Shown here: in pieces, positions 23,301-47,021 of the stretch | How positions within the stretch are numbered: position 1 is the stretch's first letter | How the letters are laid out: the number at the start of each line of letters is the position of its first letter | Assembly: GCA_026414805.1 (NCBI GenBank) | Contig: JAOAIH010000004.1 | Location: 15,808 to 79,807, forward strand | Reading direction: 5' to 3' | Source: Spirochaetota bacterium | Lineage (GTDB): Bacteria > Spirochaetota > UBA4802 > UB4802 | DNA length: 64,000 bases | Program-made: the position numbers and the translations under genes | The notes under the pieces: model-generated | What the model was told of the DNA's origin: nothing | What the model saw: the letters and a program-made list of their open reading frames with translations, nothing else | Databases searched by the model: none

Positions 23301-26300
23301 AAACTTTGGAAATGTATGGATATTCCTCAAAAGAAGAAATGCTTTCGGGCAATATTGGTGATTTAAGTGCAAATATTTATCCATATACAGAAGAGGAAGC
23401 ACAGGAAAAAGTTGCTCTTGCATTAAAAGGCGAAGTTCCTACCTTCGAGTGGTTGGCAAAAAAGAAAAATGGTGAAGTATTCTGGGTAGAAGTAACACTT
23501 AAAAAAGTAACACTTGCAGGCAAGGAAAGAGTATTGGCAATAGTACGTGATATAAATGAAAGAAAAAAAACAGAAGAAAAGCTGACTCTTTATAGTAAAA
23601 GATTAAATACTATTATTGAAGCTGTAAATATTGGTACGTGGGAATGGAATGTGCAGACGGGTGAGCTTGTTTTAAATGAGGTCTGGGCAAATATGGTTGG
23701 GTATACATTACAGGAGCTATCGCCCATATCATTACAAACATGGGAATCATTAACCCACCCTGAGGATTTAAAAAAAGCTTATGATACGCTGGAAAAACAC
23801 TTCAATGGCCAATTGCCGTATTACGAATGCGAAATAAGAATGAAACACAAAAATGGTAATTGGATATGGATTCTTGATAAAGGCAGAGTGGTGATGTGGA
23901 CTAACGATGGCAAACCGCTCATGATGTATGGTACCCATACCGATATTACAAAATTAAAAGAAACTGAACAGGCCTTACGCCAATCAAAAGAGTTTATTAA
24001 TAATGTCCTTGATACTATACCTGTAAGAGTATTCTGGAAAGATAGGCAATTGAGATATTTAGGGTGCAACAGGGCATTTGCTGTTGATGCTGGGTATGAT
24101 GACCCTGCTCAAATTGTTGGAAAGACAGATTTTGATATGGCCTGGAAACAGCAAGCAGAGCTCTACAGGAAAGATGATAAAGATGTAATAGAAACTGGGA
24201 TTGCGAAATTGGGTTATGAGGAACCTCAAAATACGCCTGATGGTAACATATTATGGCTGCGTACCAGCAAAGTACCATTGCGCAATGAAAGTGGTGAAAT
24301 TATAGGCGTGCTTGGAACGTATGAGGATATTACAGAAGCAAAAAAAGCTGAAAAAGATCTTAAAGACAGCGAAGAACGGTACCGTAATTTAGCTGAATCA
24401 ACACAGGATTGTATAGCTTTGCATGATATGAATGGTGTTATTCAATACGTAAATCAGGCTGCAGTAAATATTACTGGATATTCACGTGAAGAGATAATTG
24501 GTAAAAATATAATCATGTTCATTCCACGTAAGTACCGGCGTTCAATTTATGAACGGCACACAAAGCGGCTTAAAGGATTTATGGGTATAGATCAGTTTGA
24601 AGCAGAAATGATTAATAAATATGGAGTTTTAATACCTGTACAGGTGACTTCAACACCTATTGTTAAGGATAATAAGATTGTATCAATAATGATTGTTGTT
24701 CATGACCTTACTCAGCGCAAAATAGCTGAGGAGTTATTGATAAAGAATAAAGAGCGTCTGGAAGCTGCAATATCTATACTGCAATATGATGCACATGATA
24801 CTCGTGAATTAATTGATTATGTGTTGAATCAGGCTTTGCTGTTAACAGGGAGCAAAATTGGTTTTATCATGAGTTATGATAACAAAGAAAAGAAATTCTC
24901 TGTTGAAGCATGGTCAAAAGAAGTCATGTATGAATGTACTATAATAGAGAAGCCAGAAGTGTATTATCTGCATAATGCCGGTATATGGGCTGAAGCGGTC
25001 CGTCAGGCACGGCCAGTTATTATTAATAATTATAAAGAGCCACATACAGCAAAGAAAGGCTATCCAGAAGGCCATGTGGATATTATCCGGTATTTGGGTA
25101 TACCAGTATTTAAAAATAAAGAGATAGTTGCCACTGTTGGTGTTGCCAATAAAGAAACTGATTATACTGAAATAGATGTTTTGCAATTAACATTGCTTAT
25201 GGATGCAGCATGGAAATCAATTGAGCGTTTGGAGATAAAACTGGCTCTTTCTGAAAGTGAAGCAAAATTCAGAACGTTAGCTGATTTAAGCCCAACGGCT
25301 ATTATGATGTATCAGGATGATAAATTTGTATACGTTAATAAGGCTGCTGAGCGCATTTCAGGTTACAGTTTTGAAGAAGCAGTTACTATGGATTTTTGGT
25401 CTATTGTACATCCTGATGATTTGCAGATGATTATTGAAAAAGGAAAGAAACGACAAGCGGGTCAACATGGATTAGATAGTTATGAGTTCAGGATTATTAC
25501 AAGGGGTGGGGAAATTAAATGGGTCTATATCACCAGTGCAACTGTGCAATATAGAGGTAGACCTGCTGGTCTTGTTTCAGTGTTGGATATAACCGACCGT
25601 AAAAAAGCAGAGGACGCCCTGTATGAAGAAAAGGAAAAACTACAGATAACTCTACAAAGTATTGGTGACGGAGTAATAGCAACAGATACTCAAGGTAAAG
25701 TGGTGATTATAAATGCAGCTGCACAGCGGCTTACAGGGTATTCCCAGATAGAAGCGGAAGGGAAACCTCTTACAGAGATCTTTACAATTATTCATGAGCT
25801 ATCGGGCAAACCTTTAGAAAACCCGGTTGAAAAAGTATTAGCAACAGGAAAAGTATATGAGCTTTCTAATCATACAGTCCTGGTGGCAAAAGACGGTACA
25901 CGACGTATTATTGCTGATAGTGCTGCACCTATTAAAGATGCTTCTGGAAATATTCTGGGAGTTGTACTTGTATTTAGAGATATGACCGAAAAACTACAGC
26001 TAATTGAGCAATCGCAACGTGCACAGCGGTTAGAATCATTAGGGATTCTGGCTGCAGGTATTGCCCATGATTTCAACAATATTCTGGAGGGTGTGTTTGG
26101 GTATATTGGACTTGCTAATGCATATGTAAAAGATGCCAATATATCTGATTTGCTATCACAGGCACTTAAGTCAATCCAGCGTGCAAAAGGTTTGACCGGG
26201 CAACTTTTGACATTTTCAAAAGGTGGACAACCGGTTAAAAAAGTGCAGTCAATTATACCTTTATTGGAAGATACAGTACAGTTTGCAATTAGTGGTTCAA

Positions 26301-27121
26301 ATATTAAAGCGCAATTCTATTTTGATGAAAATCTTAATAATGCTAATTTTGACTATAACCAGATTGCACAGGTAATTGAAAATGTAGTTATCAATGCTGT
26401 TCAAGCAATGCCAATGGGAGGTACTATAACTGTAAGTGCAAACAATGTATCATTTAGTGGCAATGAACATCCATTGCTTGAGGGTGATTACATTAGAATA
26501 ACTATTGCTGACGAGGGTGTAGGCATTCCTAAAGACCTACTGCCTAAAATATTTGATCCTTTCTTTACTACAAAAAGTTTGGGACAAGGCTTGGGGCTTG
26601 CAACAAGCTATTCAATTATTACACGGCATAATGGAACAATAGAAGTTGAATCAGAACCAGGAAAAGGAACAACGGTGTATATTTATCTGCCAGCCTCAAA
26701 AAGTAGAGTACAAGATGTACAAAAGAAAGAAGAAAAGAAGATACTGAAAGGAGGAAAAATACTTATTCTTGATGATGAACCTACAATGCGACAGATTATG
26801 CTACAATTTTTAGAACATCTGGGTTTTGAAGGAGTAGCTGTTGACAATGGAAACGATGCAATTGAAATATTTTTAAGGGAAAAAGAAAAAGGAAGGCCAT
26901 TTGATGCATTAATCTTTGATATGACAATAAAGGGAGGTATGGGTGGCAAAGAAGCAATTGCCGAAATACGAAAATATGATTCCAAAGTGCCTGCATTTGT
27001 CATGAGCGGGTATAGTGAAGACTATGTAATGGTACACCCCCAGGAACATGGATTTAACGCTGGTATTAGCAAACCGTTCACACTTGAAGAATTGGAAGCA
27101 TTGCTGGCAAAGTATTTTTAA
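20327..27121 (+). CDS. Giant multi-PAS/GAF hybrid sensor histidine kinase (HisKA + HATPase_c + receiver)
   Basis: 2264 aa. N-terminal hydrophobic segment, more than 12 PAS/PAC repeats separated by recurring ITERKKAE-type linkers, a GAF-like segment, an H-box ([16 protein letters not shown]), N/G1/G2 ATPase boxes, and a C-terminal receiver domain (ILILDDEP...[12 protein letters not shown]). The exact start (20327 or an in-frame Met nearby) is uncertain. Confidence 0.9.
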
Positions 27122-27814: not shown

Positions 27815-28204
27815 TATTTACACCTCCTTGCGGGATATAATTTAACCTTCATCATTTGAGGCAAACCCTTGAATATTTTCTTTCGTTTGCTATCCGTAAA
27901 TATAGTCTTAAAACATTTTACAATTAGCAATTTCACCTCTTTAAGGTAGCTACAAAACTAATTGGTAAGAGATTCCTCCGAACGTATCTACTTTAAAATA
28001 ATAATAAGAAATTGCAAATGTTATTTATATGCTTGAATAGTATTTGTTGTATACTCTGATTTCTATCGTATAGAAAAGCTTTCAAAAAGAAAATAAAAAA
28101 ATATTCATAATAATTTTATATATACTTTACTGTTGATTGGCATCTTACAAACAAAGAAAATTTTGTTATAGCTTTTTTATTTTATAAACAGCTGGAGACT
28201 TTTT

Positions 28205-29389
28205 ATGCCAGTTTCGACAGTTGAAAGTATAATATATCGATTACATGAGCCTTTACCAATGCGCTTTACAGCAGGAATGCTTGTCAGTTCAATGTATTAT
28301 GTTTTTTCTGATACTAAAATTGATGCACTGTCGGAAGCGCTTGCAAAAAATGAAGACATCTTTGCATGCGCGGTTGTAGACAGGTCTATGAAAGTACATG
28401 GCGTAATTGTTAGGAAGGATCTTTTTGATATTCTGGGAAGGCGTTTTGGCAGAGAATTGTACTATAACAAAACAGCGCTTGATATGATACAGAGGGTGCA
28501 GAGTTTTCCTTATAACATACATGTGTTTGAATGTGCAAAGATTATTGAAAGAGATCTACTCACAGGTGTGCAGGATTATTATGTTCTGTTAGATGATAAC
28601 GGCTGTTACAGTGGCATTTTTTCAACAAAAGATATGTTGATATTCCTGTCTCGATTAACACGTATTGATATTGATCAGGCAAAACGAATAATAAGTAGAA
28701 TCATAAAAAAAGAATATATTATAAAAACCAAGCGTTTGCATATTGCAGTACGTACTGAAATGGTGCAGGATATTGGCGGAGATTCATATTATGTTCTATC
28801 GTCAAAAAGCAAAAATCAGCATGTTATTGCGGTGTGTGATGTTTCAGGAAAAGGAATAGCAGCATCAATGATAACTACACTTATAAGTGGCATGATATCA
28901 TCGTATGACTTTGAAAAAAATTCTATAGAATATTTTCTTATACAGTTAAATAATTTTATTTATACTACTTTTGAAGGTGAACGTTTTGTTACTGCATGTT
29001 TTATGTTGATTGATGAAGATAGCGGGATGTTAAATATGTATGATTTTGGCCATTCAATGACATATTTATTACGGAATAATAATATGTTTAAATTGTCTTT
29101 GAAGGAAATAAATATACCATTGGGAATTCAAAAAATGCATTCTGTTAATGGTGGTAGAGCAAAAATAGAGCCAGGTGACACTATCATAGCATTTACCGAT
29201 GGTATTATTGAGCAGCGAAATATTGAAGGCAAAGAATATGGAGTGCAGAGATTAAATAAATTAATTATTGATAATAATACATTTGATCCTATGAACACAA
29301 TTAATGCAGCATTTGATACTATAAAAAATTATAAAGGAAGGTATCCACAACAGGATGATATGACCCTGTTGTGTATTCGATATGAATAG
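28205..29389 (+). CDS. CBS-domain-containing PP2C-type (SpoIIE/RsbU family) serine phosphatase
   Basis: 394 aa. N-terminal CBS-like pair (ACAVVDRSMKVHGVIVRKDLFDILG). C-terminal PPM motifs (GGDSYYV..., VCDVSGKGIAASM, DGIIEQRN). Confidence 0.75.
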   Translation: MPVSTVESIIYRLHEPLPMRFTAGMLVSSMYYVFSDTKIDALSEALAKNEDIFACAVVDRSMKVHGVIVRKDLFDILGRRFGRELYYNKTALDMIQRVQSFPYNIHVFECAKIIERDLLTGVQDYYVLLDDNGCYSGIFSTKDMLIFLSRLTRIDIDQAKRIISRIIKKEYIIKTKRLHIAVRTEMVQDIGGDSYYVLSSKSKNQHVIAVCDVSGKGIAASMITTLISGMISSYDFEKNSIEYFLIQLNNFIYTTFEGERFVTACFMLIDEDSGMLNMYDFGHSMTYLLRNNNMFKLSLKEINIPLGIQKMHSVNGGRAKIEPGDTIIAFTDGIIEQRNIEGKEYGVQRLNKLIIDNNTFDPMNTINAAFDTIKNYKGRYPQQDDMTLLCIRYE

Positions 29390-29393
29390 AGTA

Positions 29394-30779
29394 TTATTTA
29401 TACTGTATAGTATATACCTCAACTGGTTGTTCAATTCCACGGATCGTTACTAATTCCATACGTGTTGTTTGAATAGAGGGGGCTAGCTTTTTTACATCTG
29501 AACTAATTAATATACTATCTTCACTGCACAACTGTTCCAATCGTGAGGCAATATTTACTACTTTTCCTATAGCAGTAAATGTTAACCTGTCCGATGGTCC
29601 AAAACTTCCAACTGTAGCATATCCACAGTGTATGCCTATTCGTAGGTGAAGTGAATGATCTTTTAATTGGTTTTTCCAGCTAATTTGTAATTTTTGAAAT
29701 ACCTTTTGCATTTCAATAGCCATATTAAGAGCATTATCTACCTGCATTGAAGGTATCATGGAATAGGGAGCACCAAATATAATCATGATACCATCTCCCA
29801 GAAACTTATCAACAGTACCATTAAATTTATGTGCAATGGTTGTCATCTGGGTTAAATATTGGTTGAGTATATCAGCAGCTATCTCCGCTTCACTTACATC
29901 AGTAAGCTTTGTAAATCCCTGTATATCAGTAAAGCAAACGGTAATAAATCGTTTTTGAAGTGGAATAATTTCCTGCTTTTGCCGTCGCAATATCATCTGT
30001 ACCAATTGAGATGGCAAATAAGAAGATAGTTGACTGCCAATAGATAAAAGAAATTGTTTTTCTGCTTTCACGATATATAATATGACTAGCACCAGAATTA
30101 AAGAAACAACACTGATGCCACTTACTGCAATAACAGAAAATGTAAAATACCTGTTTTTAGTTTTGATAATTTTATCATAGCTCACTTCATTAATATCATT
30201 GCATACCTTTGATAATAAGTCTGTTGCTAATTGATCTTTGCCTTTGATGATAGAATACACATCATGTGCTGATATTCTATTCTCTTTATATTGTGTTATT
30301 TCATCAATGAGTAATTCGGAAAATTGTTTATGATAATGAACTATATGTTCCATATTTTGTTTTATTGCAGGATATTCATTGAGCATTATTTTAAGATTAA
30401 AAAGTTGATTTTGTACAATAGTATATTGGTAGGAAAATTTGTGAAAGTATTTACGATATTCTTCGTTATCATTTTCAAGTAACATTGCATGTAGTAATGC
30501 CAATTGATTGCCAAAGTCTATTTGTATTGTTTGTGTTAACGTTATTATTTCGTTAATTTTTTCAATTTCTTTATGTGATTTATTAAGGTAATATAAATTC
30601 AGAAACCCACTTAACGATATCATAACCACCAGCAGTAAACCAACAACAATAACCCAGTAAGGTATTTTGGTAATAGAAAATTGTTCAATATCACTGGACA
30701 AAATAGATGGAAGCAGTTTTTTAAATAATAAGTTTAGCCTTTGAATCATGGGAAGCTTCTCCTTGAGAAGATACATCAT
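29394..30779 (-). CDS. Membrane-bound class III adenylate/guanylate cyclase with an N-terminal sensor region
   Basis: 461 aa. Two transmembrane segments flank a periplasmic region. The catalytic domain has FTDIQGFTKLT...GDGIMIIFGAP... in the CYCc pattern. Confidence 0.8.
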   Translation of the reverse strand: MMYLLKEKLPMIQRLNLLFKKLLPSILSSDIEQFSITKIPYWVIVVGLLLVVMISLSGFLNLYYLNKSHKEIEKINEIITLTQTIQIDFGNQLALLHAMLLENDNEEYRKYFHKFSYQYTIVQNQLFNLKIMLNEYPAIKQNMEHIVHYHKQFSELLIDEITQYKENRISAHDVYSIIKGKDQLATDLLSKVCNDINEVSYDKIIKTKNRYFTFSVIAVSGISVVSLILVLVILYIVKAEKQFLLSIGSQLSSYLPSQLVQMILRRQKQEIIPLQKRFITVCFTDIQGFTKLTDVSEAEIAADILNQYLTQMTTIAHKFNGTVDKFLGDGIMIIFGAPYSMIPSMQVDNALNMAIEMQKVFQKLQISWKNQLKDHSLHLRIGIHCGYATVGSFGPSDRLTFTAIGKVVNIASRLEQLCSEDSILISSDVKKLAPSIQTTRMELVTIRGIEQPVEVYTIQYK

Positions 30780-30971
30780 TTACTTATAGCAATGATGTAA
30801 TCATAAGTAATAATTGCAAACCTATTAAAAATGATATAAAGATATAATGAAGATGATGTCAAAATTATTGATGGATAGCGGAGTAATAATGAAATGAAGC
30901 ATTAATTTACTTGACCATAAAGGAATAATTGTTATGAAATAAATAAAGGTATATGCTATCAGGGGAATAGT

Positions 30972-31743: not shown

Positions 31744-33372
31744 TTATTCTAGATCTCCTATCTTTTTCAAAATGGTTGCTTCATAAGGGTAGCATTGCAT
31801 TCGTAAATCAGCAAAGTGTTCAAATTTGCTTCGATGAGTTGAATACAGTACTTTCCACTGTGCTTCGTGGTGGTGGTGTAAAAAGGTGTTGGTGTCATTA
31901 AAATTTAATATGATGCATAAAGTTTCATTGTCAAATTTACGGATATATGCTAAAATGCCATTCTTACCCTTAACGATAGGTTCCCAGGTTCCATGAGTAA
32001 GTGCTGGATGTTTTTTTCGCAGTTGTATTATATCCTTAAAGAATGAGAGCAGTGAATAGCGGTCTTTAATTTGATTTTTGACATTAATTGTGCGATAGTT
32101 ACTGTCAATTGGCAACCAGCTGCAACCGTTGCTGAAACCAGCATTTGCCTCATCGGACCATTGCATTGGAGTACGGGCACAGTCCCTACCTTTATACAGC
32201 GGCCAAAAGCGTTTGCCTGCAGGATCAACAATGTTGCGCAGGGGAATGGCACAATTTTTCATTCCTATCTCTTCGCCGTAATATATGAATGGTGTTCCCC
32301 ATAATGTTAAAAGCAAGAGTGCCAAAAGACGTTTAATTGCATCATTACTGTCATTGCTGTATTTGTCGGCATATCGTGGTTGGTCATGATTTGATAAAAC
32401 GTTACATGGCCAACAGTTTTCAGGAATAGCGTTGTACCAATGTTTAATGCATGTATATATTTTTCGTGCATCAAATGGCTGATACAAAAGTGAAAAGTCA
32501 AATGCAAGATTCAATCCTTTACCATTAAAGAGATAACTGGCAGAAAGTTCAGGATTACCGGGAGGATAACAAAATACTTCACCAACAACCATACGGTCAT
32601 CATAGGAATCAATCAGTTCGCGAATTTCCTGAACAAGTATATAGTTTTCCGGCCTGTTGCGATTATATTTTTCTATTTGCTCATTGAATGGATTAAATGA
32701 AAATGGATTGTTACGGAAACGTTTGTCTTTATAGCAATAGTTAATCACATCAAGCCTGAATCCATCTACTCCCATATCAAGCCAGTACCTCATCACATCA
32801 AACATTGCCTGTTTCACTTGTGGGTTTCGCCAGTTTAGATCGGGTTGCTCTTTGAGAAATGAATGAAGATAGTACTGCCCGGTAGGTTGGTGCCATTCCC
32901 AGGCTGATGTTAAATACGCTGATTTCCAGTTGTTGGGCGGTTTTCCTTTTTTGCCATCATGCCATATATACCAGTCGCGCTTTGGATTGTCTTTTGATGA
33001 AGATGATTCTATAAACCACGGATGCAGGTGAGACGTGTGGTTTAACACCATGTCCATTATGATCTTGATGTTGCTACTATGAGCTATCGCCAGTAAATTT
33101 TTGAAATCATCCATTGTGCCAAATGAAGGATCAATGGCATAGTAATCGCTGATATCATATCCACAATCATACATTGGAGAAGTGTATATAGGCGACAGCC
33201 ATATAGCATCAATTCCCAGACTAGTAAGGTAATCAAATTTTTCGATAATGCCCTGGATATCGCCTATGCCATCGCCATTTGAATCATAGAAGCTGCGGGG
33301 ATAGATCTGGTATATTATCCCATGCTTCCACCATACATGTTGTTTTACATTATGCCGCTGTGTTGAGATCAT
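31744..33372 (-). CDS. GH13 alpha-amylase-family enzyme (oligo-1,6-glucosidase / alpha-glucosidase / trehalose-synthase-like)
   Basis: N-terminus WWKHGIIYQIYPRSF, GIDAIWLSPIY, QPDLNWRNPQV, catalytic GVDGFRLDVINY, VGEVF, SNHDQPR. Start placed at the internal Met (MISTQRH, 33372). The track ORF extends to 33417 and would overlap the upstream gene. Confidence 0.85.
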   Translation of the reverse strand: MISTQRHNVKQHVWWKHGIIYQIYPRSFYDSNGDGIGDIQGIIEKFDYLTSLGIDAIWLSPIYTSPMYDCGYDISDYYAIDPSFGTMDDFKNLLAIAHSSNIKIIMDMVLNHTSHLHPWFIESSSSKDNPKRDWYIWHDGKKGKPPNNWKSAYLTSAWEWHQPTGQYYLHSFLKEQPDLNWRNPQVKQAMFDVMRYWLDMGVDGFRLDVINYCYKDKRFRNNPFSFNPFNEQIEKYNRNRPENYILVQEIRELIDSYDDRMVVGEVFCYPPGNPELSASYLFNGKGLNLAFDFSLLYQPFDARKIYTCIKHWYNAIPENCWPCNVLSNHDQPRYADKYSNDSNDAIKRLLALLLLTLWGTPFIYYGEEIGMKNCAIPLRNIVDPAGKRFWPLYKGRDCARTPMQWSDEANAGFSNGCSWLPIDSNYRTINVKNQIKDRYSLLSFFKDIIQLRKKHPALTHGTWEPIVKGKNGILAYIRKFDNETLCIILNFNDTNTFLHHHHEAQWKVLYSTHRSKFEHFADLRMQCYPYEATILKKIGDLE

Positions 33373-36004
33373 TGATGAACTGCTTGATGATTGCATCAGG
33401 GCTGTATTCATGAGCACGCAATAATGACTGGTTTTTGAATAGATTGAGCAGAAGAGGGTTATCCAGAAGCTCTATTATTTTTTGACCCATTTCGGTTTCA
33501 TTTTTTACTAGATAACCATTTAAGCCATTGTTTATAATGTCTTTTGGTCCCTTTGTGTTATATGCAAGTACGGGCAACCCGCATGATAGCGCTTCTAGTA
33601 CAACACATCCAAACGTATCAAATCGTGAAGGTAATACCAGCATGTCAGCAGCCGAGTATATCTTTGGCAATTTTTCATGGTCAACCCAACCTAAAAAGAT
33701 TGCATCTGGCATAAGTTTTTTGAGTTCCTGTTCTTTTGGCCCAATACCTGCAAATGCAACCTTTGCATGAGGATGTTTTTGCTTAACAATCTCCATTACT
33801 TTTGGTATATCCATAACGCCTTTTTCTTCAGAAAGCCTACCAGCAAAAAGTATTACAGGTGTTGTGGCACTCACACCAAATATTTCTTCTTTACTTGTTT
33901 TGTAAGGTTTAAAAATTTCTTCAACCCAGTGTGCAGTCAAAAATACCTGTGAGGGATTAAATCCCATATCTTTTCCGGTTAGCCATTTGCGGTGATCATT
34001 GTTAAGGACAAATAATCCATCAAAACCTTTGTAAAAAGTACGAAGTAATCTTCGGAAATTATTGAGATTTTCGCCTGTTAATTTTAGTGTTTGTTCTGCA
34101 AACATCATCCAGTCTGTGTGTACATAAAAATACGCAGGCACTGAATATGCATATTTTAACCAAACTGCAGCCAACCCCATTGGCCCTTCAGTTGAGGCAA
34201 TAATCTTGCTGTATTCACCTTCTTTAAATATTTTGTGAATTTCCAAAATATCAGGAATTCGTAATGGTTGCTGTTCATAAAATGGAAGCGTAAATTCCTT
34301 CAAAGGCTGTATAACGATTAAGTGATCCTGTGGTTGAAGTGTGTTGCTGATAGTTAATATATCTATAGGTAGATCCCGTTTTTGGATTTCTTTGAGCATT
34401 GATTGTAGTACCATTGCCACACCGTTTGAGTCGGTAAATGTATCGGTGAGCCACAACGTACGTTCAGGGTGTTTGAGAGTGTTATGAACTTTTGCAAATT
34501 CGTACAGCAATGGACGAGCTTTATACATTACACGTGCGCTAGTAAAAAAGGCTGCTGCAATCACTGCTGATCCTAAAAATGGGAATGATAATTCATCAAA
34601 TAATTTTGGCAGATTGACTTTTGATAAACCATTGCCATTAGATTTTTCGTTGGGTTCAATGTATTTTCTAAAATGTGTAGGGATTTCTATGTCTTCAAAG
34701 AATGATTCAAATTCTTTTGATTTAAACCGTTCATCTTTAATAAAATCATTGATATGCTTATCAGCACGTTTCATGAGTAGTTGTAGTAATTCTTTATATA
34801 TTCCGTATATAGATTCTGTAAAGAATTCTATATCTTCTTTTTTTCTTGTTTTTGTGTAACGGGATAATTTATATGCTATATCAAAGACCTTTTTATAATC
34901 TCTGCTTACATAAAACCGTTTTGTTTTAGAAAATGTTTTTCCAATCAAGGACTGATGGAAGAGTTCAAGGAAGTTAAGTGTAGTTTTATGCCGTCGTAAT
35001 TCAAGAAAAGCGTTAGTTATGGCTAAAGCAGCTAATTTATCTTGCATATCTCCTTTATGCAGTAATATATGAGGAAGGCCAGGATCTTCCATGTTCATAG
35101 CTATCTGACAGAAGTAATCAATAAATGATATTGCCATCTTTTCGCTATCATTATGAGAACCAAAAGGTGCCATCGCACCTTGCTTAATTGCTTCAAGTGC
35201 CAGCATTGAACGGCTAACAGTTTTTAATCGTTCATTAAGATTTGGAATGTGCAAATAGACACCTGTGAGGCCTGTAAATATTCCCATGTGACTATCGGAC
35301 CCTCCAGACATAAACTTGTCATAAGGTCTTTTACAAAACCTATCAGGTTTTATTTTAAATTTTTGCGAAAGCTCATCTAATTTATCTTTGGTTAATGACT
35401 CGATCCATTGTTTCACCAGCATATTTTGCCAGCTATCGCGTTGACCATTGATGACTTCAAATCGTTCAAACAGAAGAGCCATTTTATCGAAGAATTCCAT
35501 AGGTGGAATTCCTTTTGATTTGTAGTGATAGAGTGGATGAGCCCATATTGTGGGGAGGTCCTGCTCTAGTGTGTAATCTAAAAATTTATATATATCATTG
35601 CGGTATTTATTAAGCTTGATTTCCTGTTGGGGCGTAAACCCATACGTAAGAACATGGATACCAACTTTGTAATCGGGAACGGTACAACTAAACTCAGCAC
35701 CAACGAGCACGTCTACTCCTTTTTCTAAAAGCTGGTAGCATGAGCGTGCATTGTTGTGATTTGTTATAGTAAATGTGTCACAACCGTGAATTTTTAATGT
35801 GGAAATGAGTTCCTGTGTTGGCAACCATGTTTCGGGTATTCCTAATATTCTACCTAATTGCTCATCGGGTACATTGCTGTTGTAGTCATGGCAATGCAGG
35901 TCTATGGTTAATATTTCATTGGCAGGGTAGCGATTTTTTTGTTCATTGACAAAAGAATTAAGCAGTGAAGTAATCTGTTGGCTAAATGTTGCTTTTGACG
36001 TCAT
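33350..36004 (-). CDS. Fusion protein: N-terminal PHP-domain phosphoesterase plus C-terminal GT4 (GT-B) glycosyltransferase
   Basis: 884 aa. PHP motifs IDLHCHDYNSN...HNNARSC...GAEFS in residues 1-250. Central region (~250-500) of unknown function. C-terminal GT4 signature GRLSEEKGV...VLPSRFDTFGCVVLEALSCGLPVLAYNTKGPKDII. Lies immediately upstream of the GH13 gene on the same strand. Confidence 0.75.
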   Translation of the reverse strand: MTSKATFSQQITSLLNSFVNEQKNRYPANEILTIDLHCHDYNSNVPDEQLGRILGIPETWLPTQELISTLKIHGCDTFTITNHNNARSCYQLLEKGVDVLVGAEFSCTVPDYKVGIHVLTYGFTPQQEIKLNKYRNDIYKFLDYTLEQDLPTIWAHPLYHYKSKGIPPMEFFDKMALLFERFEVINGQRDSWQNMLVKQWIESLTKDKLDELSQKFKIKPDRFCKRPYDKFMSGGSDSHMGIFTGLTGVYLHIPNLNERLKTVSRSMLALEAIKQGAMAPFGSHNDSEKMAISFIDYFCQIAMNMEDPGLPHILLHKGDMQDKLAALAITNAFLELRRHKTTLNFLELFHQSLIGKTFSKTKRFYVSRDYKKVFDIAYKLSRYTKTRKKEDIEFFTESIYGIYKELLQLLMKRADKHINDFIKDERFKSKEFESFFEDIEIPTHFRKYIEPNEKSNGNGLSKVNLPKLFDELSFPFLGSAVIAAAFFTSARVMYKARPLLYEFAKVHNTLKHPERTLWLTDTFTDSNGVAMVLQSMLKEIQKRDLPIDILTISNTLQPQDHLIVIQPLKEFTLPFYEQQPLRIPDILEIHKIFKEGEYSKIIASTEGPMGLAAVWLKYAYSVPAYFYVHTDWMMFAEQTLKLTGENLNNFRRLLRTFYKGFDGLFVLNNDHRKWLTGKDMGFNPSQVFLTAHWVEEIFKPYKTSKEEIFGVSATTPVILFAGRLSEEKGVMDIPKVMEIVKQKHPHAKVAFAGIGPKEQELKKLMPDAIFLGWVDHEKLPKIYSAADMLVLPSRFDTFGCVVLEALSCGLPVLAYNTKGPKDIINNGLNGYLVKNETEMGQKIIELLDNPLLLNLFKNQSLLRAHEYSPDAIIKQFINDLNTAA

Positions 36005-36157
36005 ATTTCCTCTTTTAATGTAAAAATACTATAAAGTTATCAATAACAAGATGTCTTTAAGGTATAAAGATTTTATAAAGTTTGTATATAATTGTAATAA
36101 ATAAGGCTTGATTAAAAGTATATATGTGTTCTATATTTTACTATATTATAAAAAATA

Positions 36158-36649
36158 ATGGCGGGGTACATAATGAATGCTGAAACCACAACGTGTATTT
36201 CAATTCAAAATTATGGAATACTTAAGGAGCTTTGCAGAAAATATAAAATATCTTATTCAAGAGCAGTAGTGTTGATGGTTAAATATGCTACCGAAAATAA
36301 AAAATTATCAATAATAAGTAACAGAAACGTTAAATATAGAGATAAGAATGTTGCAGTATGGAGAAGGATTCATATACAGCTAACTCCTAATGAATATGAA
36401 TTTTTGATGGATGTTAAGAAGATCTGGAAGATGTCTGTGGCGAAGATGATTGAGTTTTGTCTTGAAACTATTCTTCTTGAATTAGTGGAAAATGTTCTAG
36501 AAAAAAATAGAACCGATAACTATCTATATAATAACTATCATTTTGAAATTGGTGAGGTAGAAGGTATTACATATTACCAGATCTACTGGGGGTTACCCAC
36601 AAAAATCCTCACACAAATACTAAAAAAACCATCATATACCCTCACATAA
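36158..36649 (+). CDS. Hypothetical protein with two tandem ribbon-helix-helix-like units
   Basis: 163 aa. Two similar segments (ISIQNYGILKELCRKYKISYSRAVVLMVKYA and IHIQLTPNEYEFLMDVKKIWKMSVAKMIEFCLE) each show the strand-helix-helix pattern of RHH/CopG-like proteins. Confidence 0.45.
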   Translation: MAGYIMNAETTTCISIQNYGILKELCRKYKISYSRAVVLMVKYATENKKLSIISNRNVKYRDKNVAVWRRIHIQLTPNEYEFLMDVKKIWKMSVAKMIEFCLETILLELVENVLEKNRTDNYLYNNYHFEIGEVEGITYYQIYWGLPTKILTQILKKPSYTLT

Positions 36650-37341: not shown

Positions 37342-37806
37342 ATGAAAACGCAAACAAAAGATACCGCATTAAATAGCATGCAGATCGTATGCTTTAATAT
37401 AGGCAAGGAAGAATATGGAATAGAAATATTGAAGGTGCAGGAAATACTAAAGCTTCCCGCAGTAACACCCTTGCCAAAATCTGCTGATTATATTATGGGA
37501 GTCATTGATTTGCGCGGCAAGGTTATCCCCATTGTTGATTTAGGGGTGCGCTTTGGAATTTCTGAAAAAAGCACAAAAAACAAACGTGCAATCGTTGTTG
37601 ATATTAAAGGCAAGCGTATAGGGCTTGCAATAGATCAAGTAAGTCATGTCATTAAACTGGAGCAAAAAGACATTGAACCACCGCCACCAATTGTAAAAGG
37701 CATATCAGGCAGGTTTATCATTGGAATAGGGAAAGTTGAAAATAAATTTGTGATTATTCTTGATATAGACCAAATATTTTCTTCAGAAGAATTAAAGCAG
37801 CTATAA
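37342..37806 (+). CDS. cheW: Chemotaxis coupling protein CheW
   Basis: 154 aa. CheW domain (IVCFNIGKEEYGIEILKVQEIL...VIDLRGKVIPIVDL). Confidence 0.9.
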   Translation: MKTQTKDTALNSMQIVCFNIGKEEYGIEILKVQEILKLPAVTPLPKSADYIMGVIDLRGKVIPIVDLGVRFGISEKSTKNKRAIVVDIKGKRIGLAIDQVSHVIKLEQKDIEPPPPIVKGISGRFIIGIGKVENKFVIILDIDQIFSSEELKQL

Positions 37807-38964
37807 TTTTTTCTGTTTATAGTATTCCTTTAGCGCTTCTTCCATTATAAGGTATAAAGGTTTTTTGATTTTTGCTGCCACCTTTTTACAATCCTCATAT
37901 TCAGGTTTAGGCGATAGCTCATTATAACGATAACTTTGCTTAATACGGATTTGTTCACCGTAAAGGGTAATCGTTGCAATATCCCGTGGTAAAAAGTGGC
38001 GACTAACAGTATATTCCCTGACTCCCAATGTTGTCGTTTGAGAAAAAATAATCTGTGTGCACTGTTTTACAGCTGAAAAAGGGCAAAGTACTGAAAGTAC
38101 CACACCAGGTCGCCCTTTTTTCATGATAACCTGTTGCATATATACATCTAACGCTCCCTCGCTAAAAAGCAGATCATATACATACGGATAAATTTCAGGA
38201 TTCATATCATCAATGGTGCATTCCAGCACGCACAAAAGTTGGTGTTGACTATCTGTATCATCTAGAAGCATAACCCGCGTATAACTTGGGAAACCATAAT
38301 CGCGTGTACCAAACCCTATGCCAGTTGCAGAAATCATACCTCCAAACTGTAGTTGCTGTTTACCTAAGGTTGTAAGTATAGCAGCAGCAGTTGGTGTTGT
38401 CAGTTCACCTACTTTTCCGGTGAATATAACCTGTTTCCCTTCTGTCAGCTTGACAGTTGCAGGGGCAGGTAATGGGATTGTTCCGTGTTGTGTGGATATA
38501 GTACCGGTGCCACATGCAAATGCGCTGTAGTACAATACATCGATTTGTAGGTATTCAATGCCAATACAAAAAGAAAGTATATCTACAATACTATCAATGG
38601 CACCCACCTCATGAAAATGTACTTTCTCCTTTGGTATGCCATGCACTGCAGCCTCAGCTGTGGCTAATGCATCAAATATTTTAATTGCATTGTTTTTAAC
38701 AAAGTCAGAACATGTTGTTGATGAAATAATTGCATCAATTGCTTCAAGGTTTCTATGTGTTGTATCAACTTTAGCTTTAATTCCAGCTTGAATGCCGCTA
38801 ATTCCATGCCGCACAATTTTTTCAGGAGCTATCTCAAAACCTTTAATGGGTAATGATTGTAATTGTGTAGTAATAACTTCAACCGGTAGCCCAACATCAA
38901 TGAGTGCGCCCACAAGCATATCACCGGATGCTCCCAGTTGAATATCGCAATAAAGTATTTTCAT
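37801..38964 (-). CDS. larC: LarC-family protein (DUF111; nickel insertase of the nickel-pincer nucleotide cofactor pathway)
   Basis: 387 aa. N-terminus MKILYCDIQLGASGDMLVGALIDVG matches the LarC/UPF0272 family. Confidence 0.75.
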   Translation of the reverse strand: MKILYCDIQLGASGDMLVGALIDVGLPVEVITTQLQSLPIKGFEIAPEKIVRHGISGIQAGIKAKVDTTHRNLEAIDAIISSTTCSDFVKNNAIKIFDALATAEAAVHGIPKEKVHFHEVGAIDSIVDILSFCIGIEYLQIDVLYYSAFACGTGTISTQHGTIPLPAPATVKLTEGKQVIFTGKVGELTTPTAAAILTTLGKQQLQFGGMISATGIGFGTRDYGFPSYTRVMLLDDTDSQHQLLCVLECTIDDMNPEIYPYVYDLLFSEGALDVYMQQVIMKKGRPGVVLSVLCPFSAVKQCTQIIFSQTTTLGVREYTVSRHFLPRDIATITLYGEQIRIKQSYRYNELSPKPEYEDCKKVAAKIKKPLYLIMEEALKEYYKQKKL

Positions 38965-38973
38965 GATACTATC

Positions 38974-39723
38974 CTACAAATTCCGTATAATACGGTATGC
39001 ACAGTACACAGCACCAAATCCATTATCTATATTGACCACACTTACCCCTGGTGCACAGGAGTTGAGCATACCTAAAAGTGCTGCAATACCACCAAATGAT
39101 GCACCATACCCAACTGAAGTGGGCACAGCAATGACGGGGCAGGGCACCAGCCCGCCAATAACGCTAGGCAGTGCGCCTTCCATTCCGGCAATAACAATTA
39201 TAACAGTTGCATCATGAATATGTTCCCAGTTATGGAAAACTCTATGAATACCTGCAACCCCAATATCATAAATAGTTTCAACATTAAGCCCCATTATACG
39301 TGCGGTTTCTTTTGCTTCTTCAGCTACGGGAATATCTGATGTTCCTGCTGTGATGATTAAAAGCTTGTGAGGTTTATGGTGGGGTTTTTGTATGCAGTAT
39401 GAAATGACTCTACCTGCTTCATTGTAGTGTGCTTTTTTAATATATCGTTTTACAGCAGTAAAATGTTCTTTTGTTGCCCGTGTACCCAGAAAATTTGTCT
39501 TACGTTTAACCATAGACTGTGCAATATCGGCTACCTGTTTTGGAGTTTTATTCTGGCAAAAAATAACTTCAGGGAAGCCAAGCCTGGTTTGCCGGTGATG
39601 GTCAAGTGTGGTGTGGCCTAATTGTTCAATTGTAAGGTGCGATAGCTCCTGTAGAAAATCTTCTTCAGAAATGAGCCCATTTTTAAAGCGATGCAGTAAA
39701 TCTTTAATTGCAGAGTGGCTCAT
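38974..39723 (-). CDS. larB: LarB-like PurE-fold carboxylase/hydrolase (nickel-pincer cofactor biosynthesis)
   Basis: 249 aa. PurE-like core IITAGTSDIPVAEEAKETARIMGLNVETIYDIGVAGIHR and a C-terminal NCAPGVSVVNIDNGFGA. Confidence 0.75.
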   Translation of the reverse strand: MSHSAIKDLLHRFKNGLISEEDFLQELSHLTIEQLGHTTLDHHRQTRLGFPEVIFCQNKTPKQVADIAQSMVKRKTNFLGTRATKEHFTAVKRYIKKAHYNEAGRVISYCIQKPHHKPHKLLIITAGTSDIPVAEEAKETARIMGLNVETIYDIGVAGIHRVFHNWEHIHDATVIIVIAGMEGALPSVIGGLVPCPVIAVPTSVGYGASFGGIAALLGMLNSCAPGVSVVNIDNGFGAVYCAYRIIRNL

Positions 39724-39726
39724 AGG

Positions 39727-40953
39727 TTAATATGCAGCAATAAGGATAGTTTCAACTTCATCACGGTTAAGCACCCGCGGTGCATTTTGAATAAATGGGT
39801 AGGAAAGTGTAATTTCAGCTACCTTAGAGAAAATAGCCTTATTTATATCAAATTGCGACAGTCGCTGTGGGATGTCAACATCAAGAGCCAGTTTTCTTAC
39901 ACCTTCCACAGCTTTAATTGCAGCTTCAATGACAGTAATATCCCGTACATCTTCGTCCATGACTTTTGACATCTGAACATATTTAGCAGGTGTTGATGTT
40001 AAATTGTATTCCATGATATGCGGTAACATAACAGCCATATAAGAAGCTATATCAATATGTGTCAACGAAGAAAGTGCCAGTGACAATGCAAGGGATACAG
40101 AAAGTTGAGCACTACTGAATGCAATTCCGGCCATTAGTGAAGCCATCATCATATTGAGGCGGGCGGTTTCATTATCACTTTCGCGAAGTGCTGCGGGTAA
40201 ATTTTTGAAAATCAAGTCTATGGTTCTCAATGAAAGGGTGTTCGTGATATTATTAATGTTTTTGGAAATAACAGATTCTATTGCTATGGCCAGCGTTGCT
40301 ATGCTATACCTTGCTATTGTTTCTTCATCAATACCAAAGGACATCCCCGGGTCAAGGATGACTGCTTTTGGAAAAATATAATTGTGAAAAAATGTTTTAT
40401 GTATGCCGTCATGGATATCGGTTAGTATTGTACAGGGAGTTATGTCAAATCCAAAGAGAGGGTGGACAGGGATACTTATAAATGGGACAGATTCATGAAG
40501 ATACGGGTAAGTGAAAAGTTCATGTGCAAAAAAATAATTGGATGTCAAAAGGGCAACTGCTTTTGCTGCATTAATTGAATGGATACCACCAAAACCTATA
40601 ACAAGATCACAATGGGTTTTTCGGGCAAAATAGACCGCAGTATCAATATAATCAGTGTTGTTTTCAGGAATTTCATCATAAATTATAAAAGGAATATTGT
40701 TGTTTTGCAGGTTTCTGGCAATGGGCATAAAAAGATGGTTGTACTGGTTAAAATCTATGGAACTGGTAATAAAAAGTACCCGTGAGCCAAAAAGCTTTAT
40801 AATTGAGGGAAGCAGCGTCACACTGTCAGGCTGTGCATATACAGCTGTTGGAATATAGAGGTCAGGCCATATACCTTCAATGGTTTGCCCATACGTTTTA
40901 GACATAAAAAAGCGGAATCCTGATTCCGCCTTTCTGTCAATTATGCCGGCCAT
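39727..40953 (-). CDS. Iron-containing alcohol dehydrogenase (Fe-ADH / DHQS-like superfamily) family protein
   Basis: 408 aa. N-terminal RVLFITS...IIYDEIPENNTDYIDTAVYFARKTHCDLVIGFGGIHSINAAKAVA (GGGS-like loop), AVILDPGM, and the histidine pair ...LTHID...LPHI. Its stop lies 4 nt before the larB start. Confidence 0.65.
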   Translation of the reverse strand: MAGIIDRKAESGFRFFMSKTYGQTIEGIWPDLYIPTAVYAQPDSVTLLPSIIKLFGSRVLFITSSIDFNQYNHLFMPIARNLQNNNIPFIIYDEIPENNTDYIDTAVYFARKTHCDLVIGFGGIHSINAAKAVALLTSNYFFAHELFTYPYLHESVPFISIPVHPLFGFDITPCTILTDIHDGIHKTFFHNYIFPKAVILDPGMSFGIDEETIARYSIATLAIAIESVISKNINNITNTLSLRTIDLIFKNLPAALRESDNETARLNMMMASLMAGIAFSSAQLSVSLALSLALSSLTHIDIASYMAVMLPHIMEYNLTSTPAKYVQMSKVMDEDVRDITVIEAAIKAVEGVRKLALDVDIPQRLSQFDINKAIFSKVAEITLSYPFIQNAPRVLNRDEVETILIAAY

Positions 40954-45337: not shown

Positions 45338-46273
45338 ATGCTATACATGATTAATGTTTTGAATCTGGTAAAGCATTACGGTGAAGTAAAAGCTGTTGAT
45401 GGCATTTCTTTTACAATCAGGAAGGGTGAAATAACTGGGTTGCTTGGCCCAAATGGAGCAGGCAAGACCACAACCTTGCGAATATTGACAGGATACTTGC
45501 AGCCAACCAGTGGAGTAGTAAGTGTCGATGAGTTTCTTGTTAACGAAAACCCAATAGAAGTCAAAAAGCGAATAGGGTACCTACCTGAATCAGCTCCCCT
45601 GTATCCTGATATGATTGTATATGATTTTTTGCAGTTTATGGCTGATATACGGGATGTGTATGATAAGGAAAGGATTAAAGATGTTGCAATACAGTGTGGC
45701 ATTACTGAAGTGATGCATAAAAATATAAGTGAGCTGTCAAAGGGATATAAACAGCGTGTTGGACTGGCACAGGCTATTTTACATGATCCTGAGATACTTA
45801 TTCTTGATGAGCCAACCAACGGGCTTGATCCAAATCAGATTATTGAGATACGTGACCTAATAAAAGAATTAGGGAAAGAAAAGACAGTAATACTGTCAAC
45901 TCATATATTGCAGGAAGTTGAAGCTACATGTAACAGGGTAATAATAATTGATAAGGGTGCGATAGTAGCTGACGATTCTACCAGTGAACTTAAAAGTGCA
46001 AAGGGAAAAGATATTCGTATCAATTGCATTGTTGGTGGTACCACATTTGATGCTATCCATAATGTGTTAAAGAACATTCCAGGTATTAAAGACGTAAAAC
46101 ATGTGCGCGATGAGGGGCAATTGTGCCATATTCAAGTATTGACTGGAGCAGATGTAGATATGCGCCCGGCTGTATTTAATTGTGCCAAAGACAATGGCTG
46201 GACACTGTATGAGATGAACAGGGAATACCGAAGCTTGGAGCATGTATTCCGCGAACTTACTGTAGGAGTATAA
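45338..46273 (+). CDS. ABC transporter ATP-binding protein (GldA-like)
   Basis: 311 aa. Walker A GPNGAGKTTT, ABC signature LSKGYKQRV, Walker B ILILDEPTNGLD. The start may be the Met at 45347. Confidence 0.85.
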   Translation: MLYMINVLNLVKHYGEVKAVDGISFTIRKGEITGLLGPNGAGKTTTLRILTGYLQPTSGVVSVDEFLVNENPIEVKKRIGYLPESAPLYPDMIVYDFLQFMADIRDVYDKERIKDVAIQCGITEVMHKNISELSKGYKQRVGLAQAILHDPEILILDEPTNGLDPNQIIEIRDLIKELGKEKTVILSTHILQEVEATCNRVIIIDKGAIVADDSTSELKSAKGKDIRINCIVGGTTFDAIHNVLKNIPGIKDVKHVRDEGQLCHIQVLTGADVDMRPAVFNCAKDNGWTLYEMNREYRSLEHVFRELTVGV

Positions 46274-46293
46274 TGAGTATAAGGAGGATGAGG

Positions 46294-47019
46294 ATGGAAC
46301 AATTTAAGGAAATCATGAAAGGTGCAAAGCTTATTGCTAAAAAGGAACTTTCAGGATATTTTTCAACACCAATAGGATATATTGTTATTTCAGTATTTTT
46401 GGTTATTGCAGGATTTTTATTCTTCTCAACATTCTTTTTGTATGGGCAAGCTGAGCTGAGAGCATATTTTGAACTGCTTCCTCTATTGTTTGCCTTTGTA
46501 ATACCAGCTGTCACCATGCGGCTTTTTGCTGAGGAACGCAACACTGGTTCATTTGAAATGCTTATGACATTGCCTCTGTCAACTGTGCAGGTAGTTATAG
46601 GTAAAATTATGGCAGCCACTTTGTTTGCCGCTGTAATGATATCGCCCACTCTGGTATATGCTATATCGGTAGCCTTTGTGGGATCTCTTGATATTGGTCC
46701 GGTTATTGGAGGGTATGTAGGTGCAGTGTTACTGGCAGCTGCGTATGCTTCAATTGGTGTGTTTGCATCTTCCATGACAAAAAATCAGATTGTTGCATTC
46801 ATCATAGGCTTTGCTATTTGCATTGTGCTATCGCTCATTACTAAATTTTTATACTTTATTTCCCCTAAACTGGTTTCACTATTTGAATACATCAGTGCCG
46901 ACTACCATTTTCAGAATATAGCTCGTGGTGTTGTTGATTCTCGCAATATTATATATTTTGCTTCAGTAATTGTATTAAGCTCAATGGCAAGCATCTATCA
47001 GCTGGAGGTGAAAAGATAA
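46294..47019 (+). CDS. ABC-2-type permease (GldF-like)
   Basis: About 241 aa with six hydrophobic helices. Start placed at the Met preceded by AGGAGG (track ORF starts at 46273). Confidence 0.7.
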   Translation: MEQFKEIMKGAKLIAKKELSGYFSTPIGYIVISVFLVIAGFLFFSTFFLYGQAELRAYFELLPLLFAFVIPAVTMRLFAEERNTGSFEMLMTLPLSTVQVVIGKIMAATLFAAVMISPTLVYAISVAFVGSLDIGPVIGGYVGAVLLAAAYASIGVFASSMTKNQIVAFIIGFAICIVLSLITKFLYFISPKLVSLFEYISADYHFQNIARGVVDSRNIIYFASVIVLSSMASIYQLEVKR

Positions 47020-47021
47020 TT

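Follow-up and report, generated by a model that had tools for sequence, protein, structure and literature searches.

The reverse strand of a 64,000-nucleotide stretch from a Spirochaetota bacterium (assembly GCA_026414805.1, contig JAOAIH010000004.1, positions 15,808 to 79,807; referred to here as the window) carries a two-gene operon in which a fusion of a PHP phosphoesterase domain, an all-helical domain and a GT4 glycosyltransferase domain is followed by a GH13 alpha-glucosidase. The two genes form a module that is conserved across Spirochaetota, Bacteroidota and other lineages, and promoter repeats shared with phosphate-transport genes make it very probable that the operon belongs to the phosphate (Pho) regulon. 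As modelled here, the module would encode an undescribed enzyme architecture that serves, by analogy, a known type of starvation response. The reading that we favour, at a probability of roughly 0.45, is that the operon carries out Pho-controlled lipid remodelling in a manner functionally similar to that of PlcP and Agt.

The fusion protein and its GH13 partner

Both open reading frames (ORFs) named in a preliminary description of the window, at 33350-36004 and 31744-33417 on the reverse strand, are present, and they are real genes rather than chance ORFs, because more than 700 homologues have the same architecture. The fusion gene (33350..36004), delimited from the ORF, Pfam matches, homologues and an AlphaFold model, begins with ATG and encodes 884 residues; upstream of it a ribosome-binding site, AAGAGGA, can be read from the sequence (36008..36014, reverse strand), of which AGAGGA is invariant in a six-sequence alignment. 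With 103 homologues supplied as the alignment, AlphaFold models the full-length protein with a predicted local distance difference test score (pLDDT) of 88 and a predicted template modelling score of 0.86, and residues 1-512 with a pLDDT of 86.6.

The N-terminal domain (approximately residues 28-285; 35150..35923, reverse strand) escapes sequence-based methods. Residues 1-512 have no Pfam match, even at E≤10 and with metallophosphoesterases included, and a PDB sequence search with a 29-sequence profile of residues 1-300 returned none. In Foldseek, the model of the N-terminal part has RNase AM (7UG9) as its top match (8e-6, probability 1.0), and further PHP structures follow, all at probability 1.0, namely BVU_3505 (3E38), V. 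cholerae RNase AM (9ETK), BAD_1165 (3O0F) and Cv1693 (2YB1), to which the domain is 10-17% identical in sequence. The model has the distorted (beta/alpha)7 barrel of the PHP superfamily, and residues H37, H39, H83, E104, H117, H156, D237 and H239, which are invariant among the 103 homologues, lie at the ends of successive strands and reproduce the ligand set of the superfamily (HxH, His, Glu, His, His and DxH). Membership rests on fold and ligands, because the window protein does not reach the gathering score of PF02811; as modelled, the domain is predicted to be a PHP phosphoesterase with an intact trinuclear-type metal site, and its motif HxHxxxS(D/N) is presumably the TrpH/COG0613 pattern. 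An absence of metal-binding histidines, which the preliminary description had named as grounds for abandoning its proposal, is not seen, and the order of domains that it proposed (PHP, an unassigned middle and GT4) is borne out by the Foldseek matches, the invariant ligands and the Pfam matches to GT4. Pfam recovers GT4 and GH13; the PHP domain, undetected by it, was settled by fold search alone. In one 897-residue member of the family (P0183), the HxH motif and the second-strand histidine of the PHP site have been lost and the GT4 motifs kept, and in this lineage the PHP domain is probably inactive and structural.

The region that follows (approximately residues 287-510; 34475..35146, reverse strand) is delimited by AlphaFold secondary structure and conservation as an all-helical domain, which contains a disordered loop (438-469) and a long hydrophobic packing helix (465-495) and whose invariant residues include Q300, G309, H316, G318, N331, E335, H339, T342, Y370, P442, F474, P475 and R497. 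Structure prediction thus gives the formerly unassigned middle the form of a conserved helical domain of approximately 220 residues with no known relative, a Foldseek search of the 1-512 model having returned no significant structural match for residues 287-510. Helix 472-494 was suspected of being a membrane anchor from the Kyte-Doolittle value of the window protein by itself (~1.65), a suggestion that was rejected because the family mean of 1.40 equals the value of the buried GT-B core; both Asn and Arg lie inside the helix.

The C-terminal part (residues 513-884; 33353..34468, reverse strand) is a GT4 domain of the GT-B fold, a retaining-type family, identified by invariant residues, by Foldseek and by two Pfam matches above the gathering score, to Glyco_transf_4 (residues 527-677, 3e-9, 37.6 bits) and to Glycos_transf_1 (residues 708-857, 1.4e-33, 116.3 bits). 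The fold matches are headed by GlgM and include BshA, MshA, PimB' and sucrose-phosphate synthase (SPS), at ~1e-16 and template modelling scores of 0.76-0.81. Amongst the residues invariant in the 103 homologues are R723 and K728, which we take to be the Arg and Lys that serve the diphosphate, and E804, presumably the conserved Glu of the EX7E region, whilst K617, R652 and R655 form an invariant, family-specific basic cluster in the acceptor half. In NCBIfam, the window protein lies below the cut-offs of the SPS model TIGR02472 (31 bits against 576, C-terminal part only), GpgS (48.5 against 480), Mgs (43.3 against 400) and IagA/BgsA (44 against 460), and far below those of the GlgA-type and MshA models. 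Its match to GpgS covers residues 613-849 and extends into the acceptor half, and several GT4 models for envelope polysaccharides match its C-terminal part. Judged by these scores, the relation of the fusion protein to the lipid glycosyltransferases Mgs, GpgS and IagA/BgsA appears to be only distant.

The GH13 gene (31744..33372, reverse strand) overlaps the stop of the fusion gene. Its ORF is open as far as a GTG at 33417 (557 residues, 68-nt overlap), although the ATG at 33372 (542 residues, 23-nt overlap) is the likelier start because GH13 homologues align only from residue 16-28 onward; since these homologues begin at the catalytic domain, the protein is also taken to lack a signal peptide. 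It matches PF00128 at 2.4e-146 (488.9 bits), and all 56 orthologues share the catalytic residues D208, E265 and D330 as well as H112, R206 and H329, in keeping with the catalytic Asp-Glu-Asp and the conserved regions I-IV of GH13. The enzyme is thus predicted to be catalytically intact, cytoplasmic and translationally coupled to the fusion protein. Its nearest solved structures are HaG (3WY1, 1e-133), XgtA (6AAV) and GSJ (2ZE0), all matched over their full length and down to 1e-130. Of the two identities first offered for this protein, alpha-glucosidase is upheld by the match to HaG, and trehalose synthase is not: the protein scores 373.9 bits against a cut-off of 678 with the NCBIfam model of the TreS N-terminal part and 471.8 against 799 with that of TreC, and TreS structures rank far below alpha-glucosidases among its PDB sequence matches.

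Distribution, promoter repeats and genomic context

The N-terminal 512 residues retrieve more than 700 proteins, nearly all of approximately 885 residues and of the same architecture, with more than 50% identity across phyla; in their source annotations these are described only as 'glycosyltransferase'. Loci were collected by a genome scan (280 found, 80 kept) and from metagenomes (at least 470 found, 80 kept), the latter forming an independent set of more distant relatives. The carriers in the genome loci are Leptospira, metagenome-assembled genomes (MAGs) of Leptospirales and other Spirochaetota, Bacteroidales, Marinilabiliales, Prolixibacteraceae, Cyclobacteriaceae and Flavobacteriia, and Dysgonomonas sp. 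HGC4 (locus L066) is the sole isolate among those kept, no carrier both cultured and studied having been found. A GH13 orthologue (49-91% identity) lies directly 3' of the fusion gene, on the same strand, in 61 of the 74 genome loci with enough downstream sequence and adjoins it in 31 of 56 metagenome loci, so that the partner is present in 71% of the loci that could be judged in this way; in relatives the two genes typically overlap by up to 4 nt or are separated by as much as ~16 nt. The coupling to GH13 that had been proposed from the window is therefore visible both in the overlap of the GH13 start with the stop of the fusion gene and in this conservation. Homologue and literature searches gave no characterised equivalent and no paper on a PHP-GT4 fusion, in agreement with the earlier statement that the module is undescribed, and no homologue emerged as a characterised, unrelated cell-wall glycosyltransferase with a structural PHP domain, the other finding that the preliminary description had named as grounds for abandoning its proposal.

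When all neighbours were clustered over the 160 loci, GH13 ranked first (89 loci), followed by PstB-type ABC ATPases (21), SpoIIE (16), PhoU and stand-alone GT4 (14 each), PstS (13), PstC/A (12), PhoB-like response regulators (10) and porin O/P (9). The PstS, PstC, PstB and PhoU neighbours lie above the NCBIfam cut-offs, and the identities of PhoB- and PhoR-like regulators and kinases, Porin_O_P, PiT (PF01384, 1e-97) and PitA (5e-125) were also verified. Pho genes stand beside the module in approximately 11 of the 80 genome loci and 15 of the 80 metagenome loci. At one locus (L039) a response regulator, the fusion gene, GH13, a porin, pstSCAB and phoU follow one another on a single strand; elsewhere the module is divergent from PitA or a porin-pst operon (L044, L054, L137, L142, L160) or from pstB-phoU-phoB (L008, L010), is directly preceded by PstS (L068, L069, L100), or has a response regulator gene immediately upstream of the fusion gene (L053, L104, L132), in one type of arrangement overlapping its start. 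Because these arrangements differ among loci, they point to several independent associations between Pho genes and the module. No osmotic-stress genes recur near the module in the neighbour clustering, nor do genes for sugar kinases, nucleoside diphosphate (NDP)-sugars or solute transport, and the surroundings of the 885-residue family are likewise free of recurrent genes for lipopolysaccharide (LPS), capsule or glycogen. The compatible-solute or osmotic-stress physiology envisaged in the preliminary description accordingly has nothing to support it in these neighbourhoods, in which phosphate genes, Pho-box-like repeats and membrane-lipid genes are found instead.

In front of the fusion gene, 59-76 nt before its start codon, is a Pho-box-like direct repeat of two 7-mers with an 11-bp period, CTTTATA-AAAT-CTTTATA (36063..36080, reverse strand). 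It is the only exact match to its pattern in the window, in which four matches with two mismatches or fewer are observed against 0.29 expected, and it is the best-conserved upstream block in the relatives L001-L005. A second, weaker repeat, TTTATAGTATTTTTACA (36019..36035, reverse strand), fits the degenerate pattern and overlaps the likely core promoter or 5' untranslated region; it is of uncertain significance because it is not conserved in relatives. The motif emerged from a search for repeats of 11-bp period, plain k-mer enrichment upstream of the fusion genes having yielded AT-rich noise only. The form TTYAYA-N5-TTYAYA, a candidate Pho box for Leptospirales, has 32 matches in 2.69 Mb (both strands), 14 of them 20-150 nt upstream of a fusion gene, and a matrix built from these 14 sites finds the promoters of pstB-phoU-phoB (L008, L010), PiT (L012) and MCP-pstS (L059), as well as those of low-molecular-weight (LMW)-phosphatase/ArsC-like genes; the pstB-phoU-phoB site of L010, TTAACAAAATCTTTATA, is identical to the window box at 15 of 17 positions. 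A Bacteroidota variant, YTTAAY-N5-YTTAAY (CTTAAY-N5-CTTAAY), is likewise gained as a candidate, 12 of its 32 matches lying upstream of porin/pst/phoB genes or of the fusion gene. In a non-circular test, a matrix trained on porin O/P promoters only reached at least 12 bits within -250..+60 of 34 of the 146 fusion genes and 40 of 1268 other ORFs (odds ratio 9.3, Fisher p = 3e-16), with its sites upstream of the fusion genes mostly 70-85 nt from the start codon; this Bacteroidota-trained matrix does not score the window box, which is a Leptospirales variant. PhoP/PhoB regulators bind 11-nt direct repeats (PMC2275107), and because the promoter repeats, which are shared with pst and pit promoters and represented in the window at 36063-36080, match this mode of binding, membership of the operon in the Pho regulon appears well supported.

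Several further genes share these signals or positions. A 163-residue ORF (36158-36649, forward strand) diverges from the operon on the same Pho-box intergenic region and is conserved in six related loci; it has no convincing family, its two weak NCBIfam matches lying far below cut-off. Pho-box-like repeats also lie at 28104-28120 (forward strand), ~85 nt upstream of a gene for a CBS-SpoIIE (PP2C) phosphatase (28205-29389, forward strand), and at 30835-30852 (reverse strand), ~56 nt upstream of an adenylate cyclase gene (29394-30779, reverse strand). Both genes are found with the module in a further 8-16 loci, with boxes upstream in L001-L003, and may form a phosphate-starvation signalling branch acting through cyclic AMP or partner switching. 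Genes for a PhoH-like PIN-domain ATPase and LMW-phosphatase/ArsC-like proteins are found near the module in two loci (L012:14313-15725, L012:16045-16479, L007:8322-8768), and an LMW-phosphatase/ArsC-like gene so placed has a Leptospirales-type Pho box.

Membrane-lipid genes are a further component of the context. The stand-alone GT4 genes of 14 loci match glycolipid synthases over their full length, below curated cut-offs (Mgs 6e-28, IagA/BgsA 7e-40, processive Dgs 9e-35); the porin-trained matrix gives six of the 14 a score of 12 bits or more (p = 4e-6), and porin-like repeat arrays can be seen by eye at several of them. The BgsA-like GT4 gene overlaps a DedA gene and occurs in five loci of a Bacteroidales subclade. 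An OlsF-like aminolipid synthase gene (PF13444, PF19576, PF01553) directly precedes the fusion gene in L096 and L150, where its ORF stops either 14 nt short of the called start of the fusion gene or a few nt beyond it, and lies nearby in L063 and L118, and a FadD-like ligase adjoins the module in four loci. A paper on Labilibaculum lipids was considered as evidence and proved uninformative, the phosphate of the standard medium lying far above the in situ level.

A sister family (P0191, P0193, P0200, P0187, P0197 and P0212; loci L081-L083) consists of PHP-linker-GT4 fusions of approximately 780-1000 residues, which have a shorter linker and share ~33% identity with the main family in the PHP domain only. 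Its members match PF02811 and PF13263 near the cut-offs (P0200, 26.7 bits against 26.4 for PF02811; PHP_C matches above 21.3). Neither GH13 nor pst genes occur in three contexts of sister proteins of ~800 residues, and a member in Desulfamplus adjoins glgA, glgC and a PhoU-domain gene. Out of 18,950 NCBIfam models, the sister-family acceptor half matches those of lipid glycosyltransferases alone, with GpgS at 1e-10, 2e-10 and 5e-4 and IagA/BgsA weakly; GpgS is GlcNAc-phosphatidylglycerol synthase (PMC12713373).

Some lineages carry additional partners. In GC-rich loci without GH13, for which Fibrobacterota supply the closest protein matches, the start of the fusion gene is overlapped by the gene of a hypothetical, widespread protein of ~800 residues (L123:7594-10008, L133:7629-9986, L153:7480-10008). 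This protein matches neither a Pfam domain nor, by sequence, any PDB entry, and its motif HNHWFRDSAF, which we guess to resemble that of (alpha/alpha)6 glycosidases, makes it a possible, putative non-orthologous replacement of GH13. In the Bacteroidales subclade with the DedA overlap, a protein of ~100 residues (MKTxKFFFFFNLFFY...), with probably two transmembrane segments and no family match, is encoded 3' of GH13 (L031, L033-L035, L037, L041, L048; e.g. L035:12778-13083). A GRAM/PH-like protein of 112-117 residues is encoded directly upstream of the fusion gene, on the same strand, in two Bacteroidota loci (L044:9567-9905, L033:1375-1728).

Proposed pathway and competing explanations

According to the favoured model of lipid remodelling, exhaustion of phosphate would cause a PhoB-type regulator to bind the 11-bp repeats and induce the operon. 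The PHP domain would split a phosphoester bond, either in a membrane glycerophospholipid or in phosphatidic acid, in the manner of a phospholipase C or a phosphatidate phosphatase, a reaction that would free phosphorus and leave diacylglycerol. The helical domain may hold this lipid or pass it on, and the GT4 domain would add a hexose to it, probably alpha-glucose from an NDP-sugar, to yield a phosphorus-free glycolipid, with GH13 acting on a pathway-linked alpha-glucoside, the trimming or recycling of glucosyl head groups being one possibility. That one soluble polypeptide performs the whole exchange of phospholipid for glycolipid under direct PhoB control, with a dedicated alpha-glucosidase tuning or recycling the head groups, is a more tentative proposition. 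If true, it would amount to a route of lipid renovation that is independent of PlcP and Agt and widespread in largely uncultured Spirochaetota, Bacteroidota, Fibrobacterota-like and Desulfobacterota lineages.

A number of observations weigh against this model. For a lipid product one would not expect the partner conserved most to be a soluble alpha-glucosidase of the disaccharide type, and co-expression of a glucosidase with a glucosyl-lipid synthase looks futile. We know of no PHP-family enzyme that acts on lipids, and the nearest PHP folds found by Foldseek are nucleotide-directed. By hydropathy the fusion protein is soluble, without a membrane anchor; its best GT4 fold matches (GlgM, BshA, MshA and SPS) use soluble acceptors, although these scores do not discriminate, and its GT4 acceptor half, scanned alone against NCBIfam, has no match and hence no lipid-glycosyltransferase model. 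Lipid-gene neighbours are present in minorities of loci, and where an Mgs-like GT4 is among them, glucosylation of diacylglycerol may not be the task of the fusion protein. As pst genes are absent from the window, it is connected to Pho by the promoter repeat and by its relatives.

Part of this evidence fits better with a soluble product. The glycoside-phosphate synthase and phosphatase put forward in the preliminary description survives as the main rival in its chemistry, by virtue of the GH13 partner, while its osmotic physiology has no support from the context. In this scheme, the GT4 domain would glucosylate a small phospho-acceptor (e.g. glycerol-3-phosphate, fructose-6-phosphate, glucose-1-phosphate, inositol phosphate or 3-phosphoglycerate), the PHP domain would dephosphorylate the product and GH13 would later hydrolyse the alpha-glucoside, so that sugar-phosphate phosphate is freed and carbon is parked as a neutral glucoside. 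Its best support is the coupled, intact and cytoplasmic disaccharide-type alpha-glucosidase in 71% of loci; GlgM, MshA and SPS use soluble, partly phosphorylated acceptors, the basic cluster of K617, R652 and R655 could bind phosphate, and the protein is soluble. Synthase-phosphatase fusions (SPS-SPP, TPS-TPP and GgpPS) are, moreover, a known pattern for glycoside-phosphate pathways. We nevertheless consider this scheme less likely than lipid remodelling, though deserving of serious attention, as sugar-kinase, NDP-sugar and solute-transport genes do not recur nearby, the SPS, GlgA-type and MshA models score far below their cut-offs and, to our knowledge, no compatible-solute synthase belongs to a Pho regulon. 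It also leaves unexplained the large conserved helical domain, the lipid-glycosyltransferase, DedA and OlsF-like neighbours, and the affinity of the sister-family acceptor half for lipid glycosyltransferases.

Two other explanations appear improbable. The PHP domain might remove phosphate from a lipid-linked or envelope sugar, for example in LPS core or lipid A precursors, and the GT4 domain put glucose in its place, for which the PhoB-dependent WaaH change of the E. coli core offers a comparison, or else a GlgM-like reaction might feed or prime alpha-glucan or maltose metabolism with GH13 as maltase. Such envelope or alpha-glucan roles accord with the Pho regulation, the top fold match to GlgM, the position of the Desulfamplus sister member beside glgA and glgC, the kinship of GH13 with HaG and XgtA and the matches of envelope-polysaccharide GT4 models to the C-terminal part. 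They are at odds with the absence of recurrent LPS, capsule and glycogen genes next to the 885-residue family; a succession of GlgM, phosphatase and maltase would be a futile cycle, and the LPS cores of Leptospirales and Bacteroidota differ, whereas the identity of the enzyme between the two groups exceeds 50%. Quite improbable, and compatible with either a lipid or a soluble acceptor, is an action of the PHP domain on a nucleotide, be it the NDP that glycosyl transfer by the GT4 domain sets free or a different nucleotide phosphoester, which would relieve product inhibition and recover phosphate in starvation. All significant PHP fold matches are nucleotide-directed, among them RNase AM and an enzyme solved with AMP, the HxHxxxS(D/N) motif fits the TrpH/Cv1693 group and recovery of phosphate fits Pho control; however, the identity to the matched enzymes is only 10-17%, we know of no precedent for a bacterial glycosyltransferase-NDPase fusion, and the helical domain and GH13 would be left unexplained. 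The family member without PHP ligands indicates that the GT4 part can persist without PHP activity and is silent on the substrate.

A major way in which microbes respond to scarce phosphate is to exchange phospholipids for lipids that contain no phosphorus, and this exchange also shapes the lipid signatures that geochemists read in sediments and anoxic waters. What is known of the machinery (PlcP, Agt, Pgt, OlsB/OlsF, BtaAB and Sqd) comes mostly from Proteobacteria, and for Spirochaetota and Bacteroidota that are largely uncultured and MAG-derived the module is a candidate for the route still missing. If the lipid model is correct, it would bring a new architecture, possibly the first lipid substrate of a PHP enzyme and an unexpected glycoside hydrolase partner. 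If the product is instead a soluble glucoside, the fusion would contain the first PHP-type glycoside-phosphate phosphatase and would newly tie carbohydrate storage to phosphate starvation.

Other genes of the window and comparison with known systems

Elsewhere in the window, a 2264-residue hybrid histidine kinase with approximately ten PAS domains, GAF, HisKA/HATPase and a receiver domain is encoded at 20327-27121 (forward strand). LarC-like (Ni_insertion, 1e-124) and LarB-like (AIRC) genes adjoin an iron-type alcohol dehydrogenase gene at 37801-40953 (reverse strand) and are probably parts of a nickel-pincer cofactor pathway, neither LarA nor LarE having been seen among the window ORFs scanned. 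At 45338-49169 (forward strand) a GldA-like ABC ATPase (368 bits against a cut-off of 403) is paired with an ABC_transp_aux/DUF7088 protein, in what looks like a gliding-motility-type ABC system in a spirochaete-like genome; it is the ABC ATPase that lies near the operon.

Each part of the module has counterparts in known systems. The GH13 enzyme has a catalytic triad identical to that of HaG, XgtA and GSJ and shares with them the QPDLN motif, but differs in the Val after its nucleophile (DVIN) and in being tied to the PHP-GT4 operon; we take HaG and XgtA to be maltose-preferring, and this Val to be the residue found in alpha-1,6-specific enzymes and in TreC. In its fold and its complete metal-ligand set the PHP domain agrees with the TrpH/RNase AM/Cv1693 group (7UG9, 9ETK, 2YB1, 3O0F and 3E38), whose members are, in contrast, stand-alone and nucleotide-directed, whereas the window domain is fused, only 10-17% identical to them and missed by sequence methods. 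In SPS-SPP, TPS-TPP and GgpPS a glycosyltransferase is fused to a phosphatase, as here, and SPS is moreover a GT4 enzyme and a fold neighbour (6KIH); the phosphatases of these systems, however, are of the HAD type, and the stress that they answer is osmotic or of another kind, whilst the window protein has a PHP domain, predicted phosphate control and an SPS score of 31 against 576 bits. GpgS, Mgs, IagA/BgsA and Dgs belong to the same GT4 family, and GpgS is the only curated model to align into the window acceptor half, but these enzymes lack PHP and helical domains, and the window protein scores far below their cut-offs.

The closest functional parallel is offered by PlcP and Agt of marine and soil Proteobacteria. 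PlcP, described as a phospholipase C, is a calcineurin-like metallophosphoesterase, and membership of the window phosphoesterase in its family was rejected, residues 1-512 having no Pfam match and a PHP fold. PlcP-Agt operons with Pho boxes convert phospholipid to glycosyl-diacylglycerol (PMC4796936), and Agt and OlsF have been described in phosphate-limited Desulfovibrio (D. alaskensis) (PMC5193443). As in the window, a phosphoesterase and a GT4 enzyme are placed under Pho-box promoters, with the same predicted outcome; in PlcP-Agt, however, these are two proteins without GH13, whereas in the window a phosphoesterase of the PHP fold is joined to the GT4 domain through a helical domain of ~220 residues and accompanied by GH13. 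The likeness of the module to PlcP-Agt would therefore be one of functional analogy rather than of membership.

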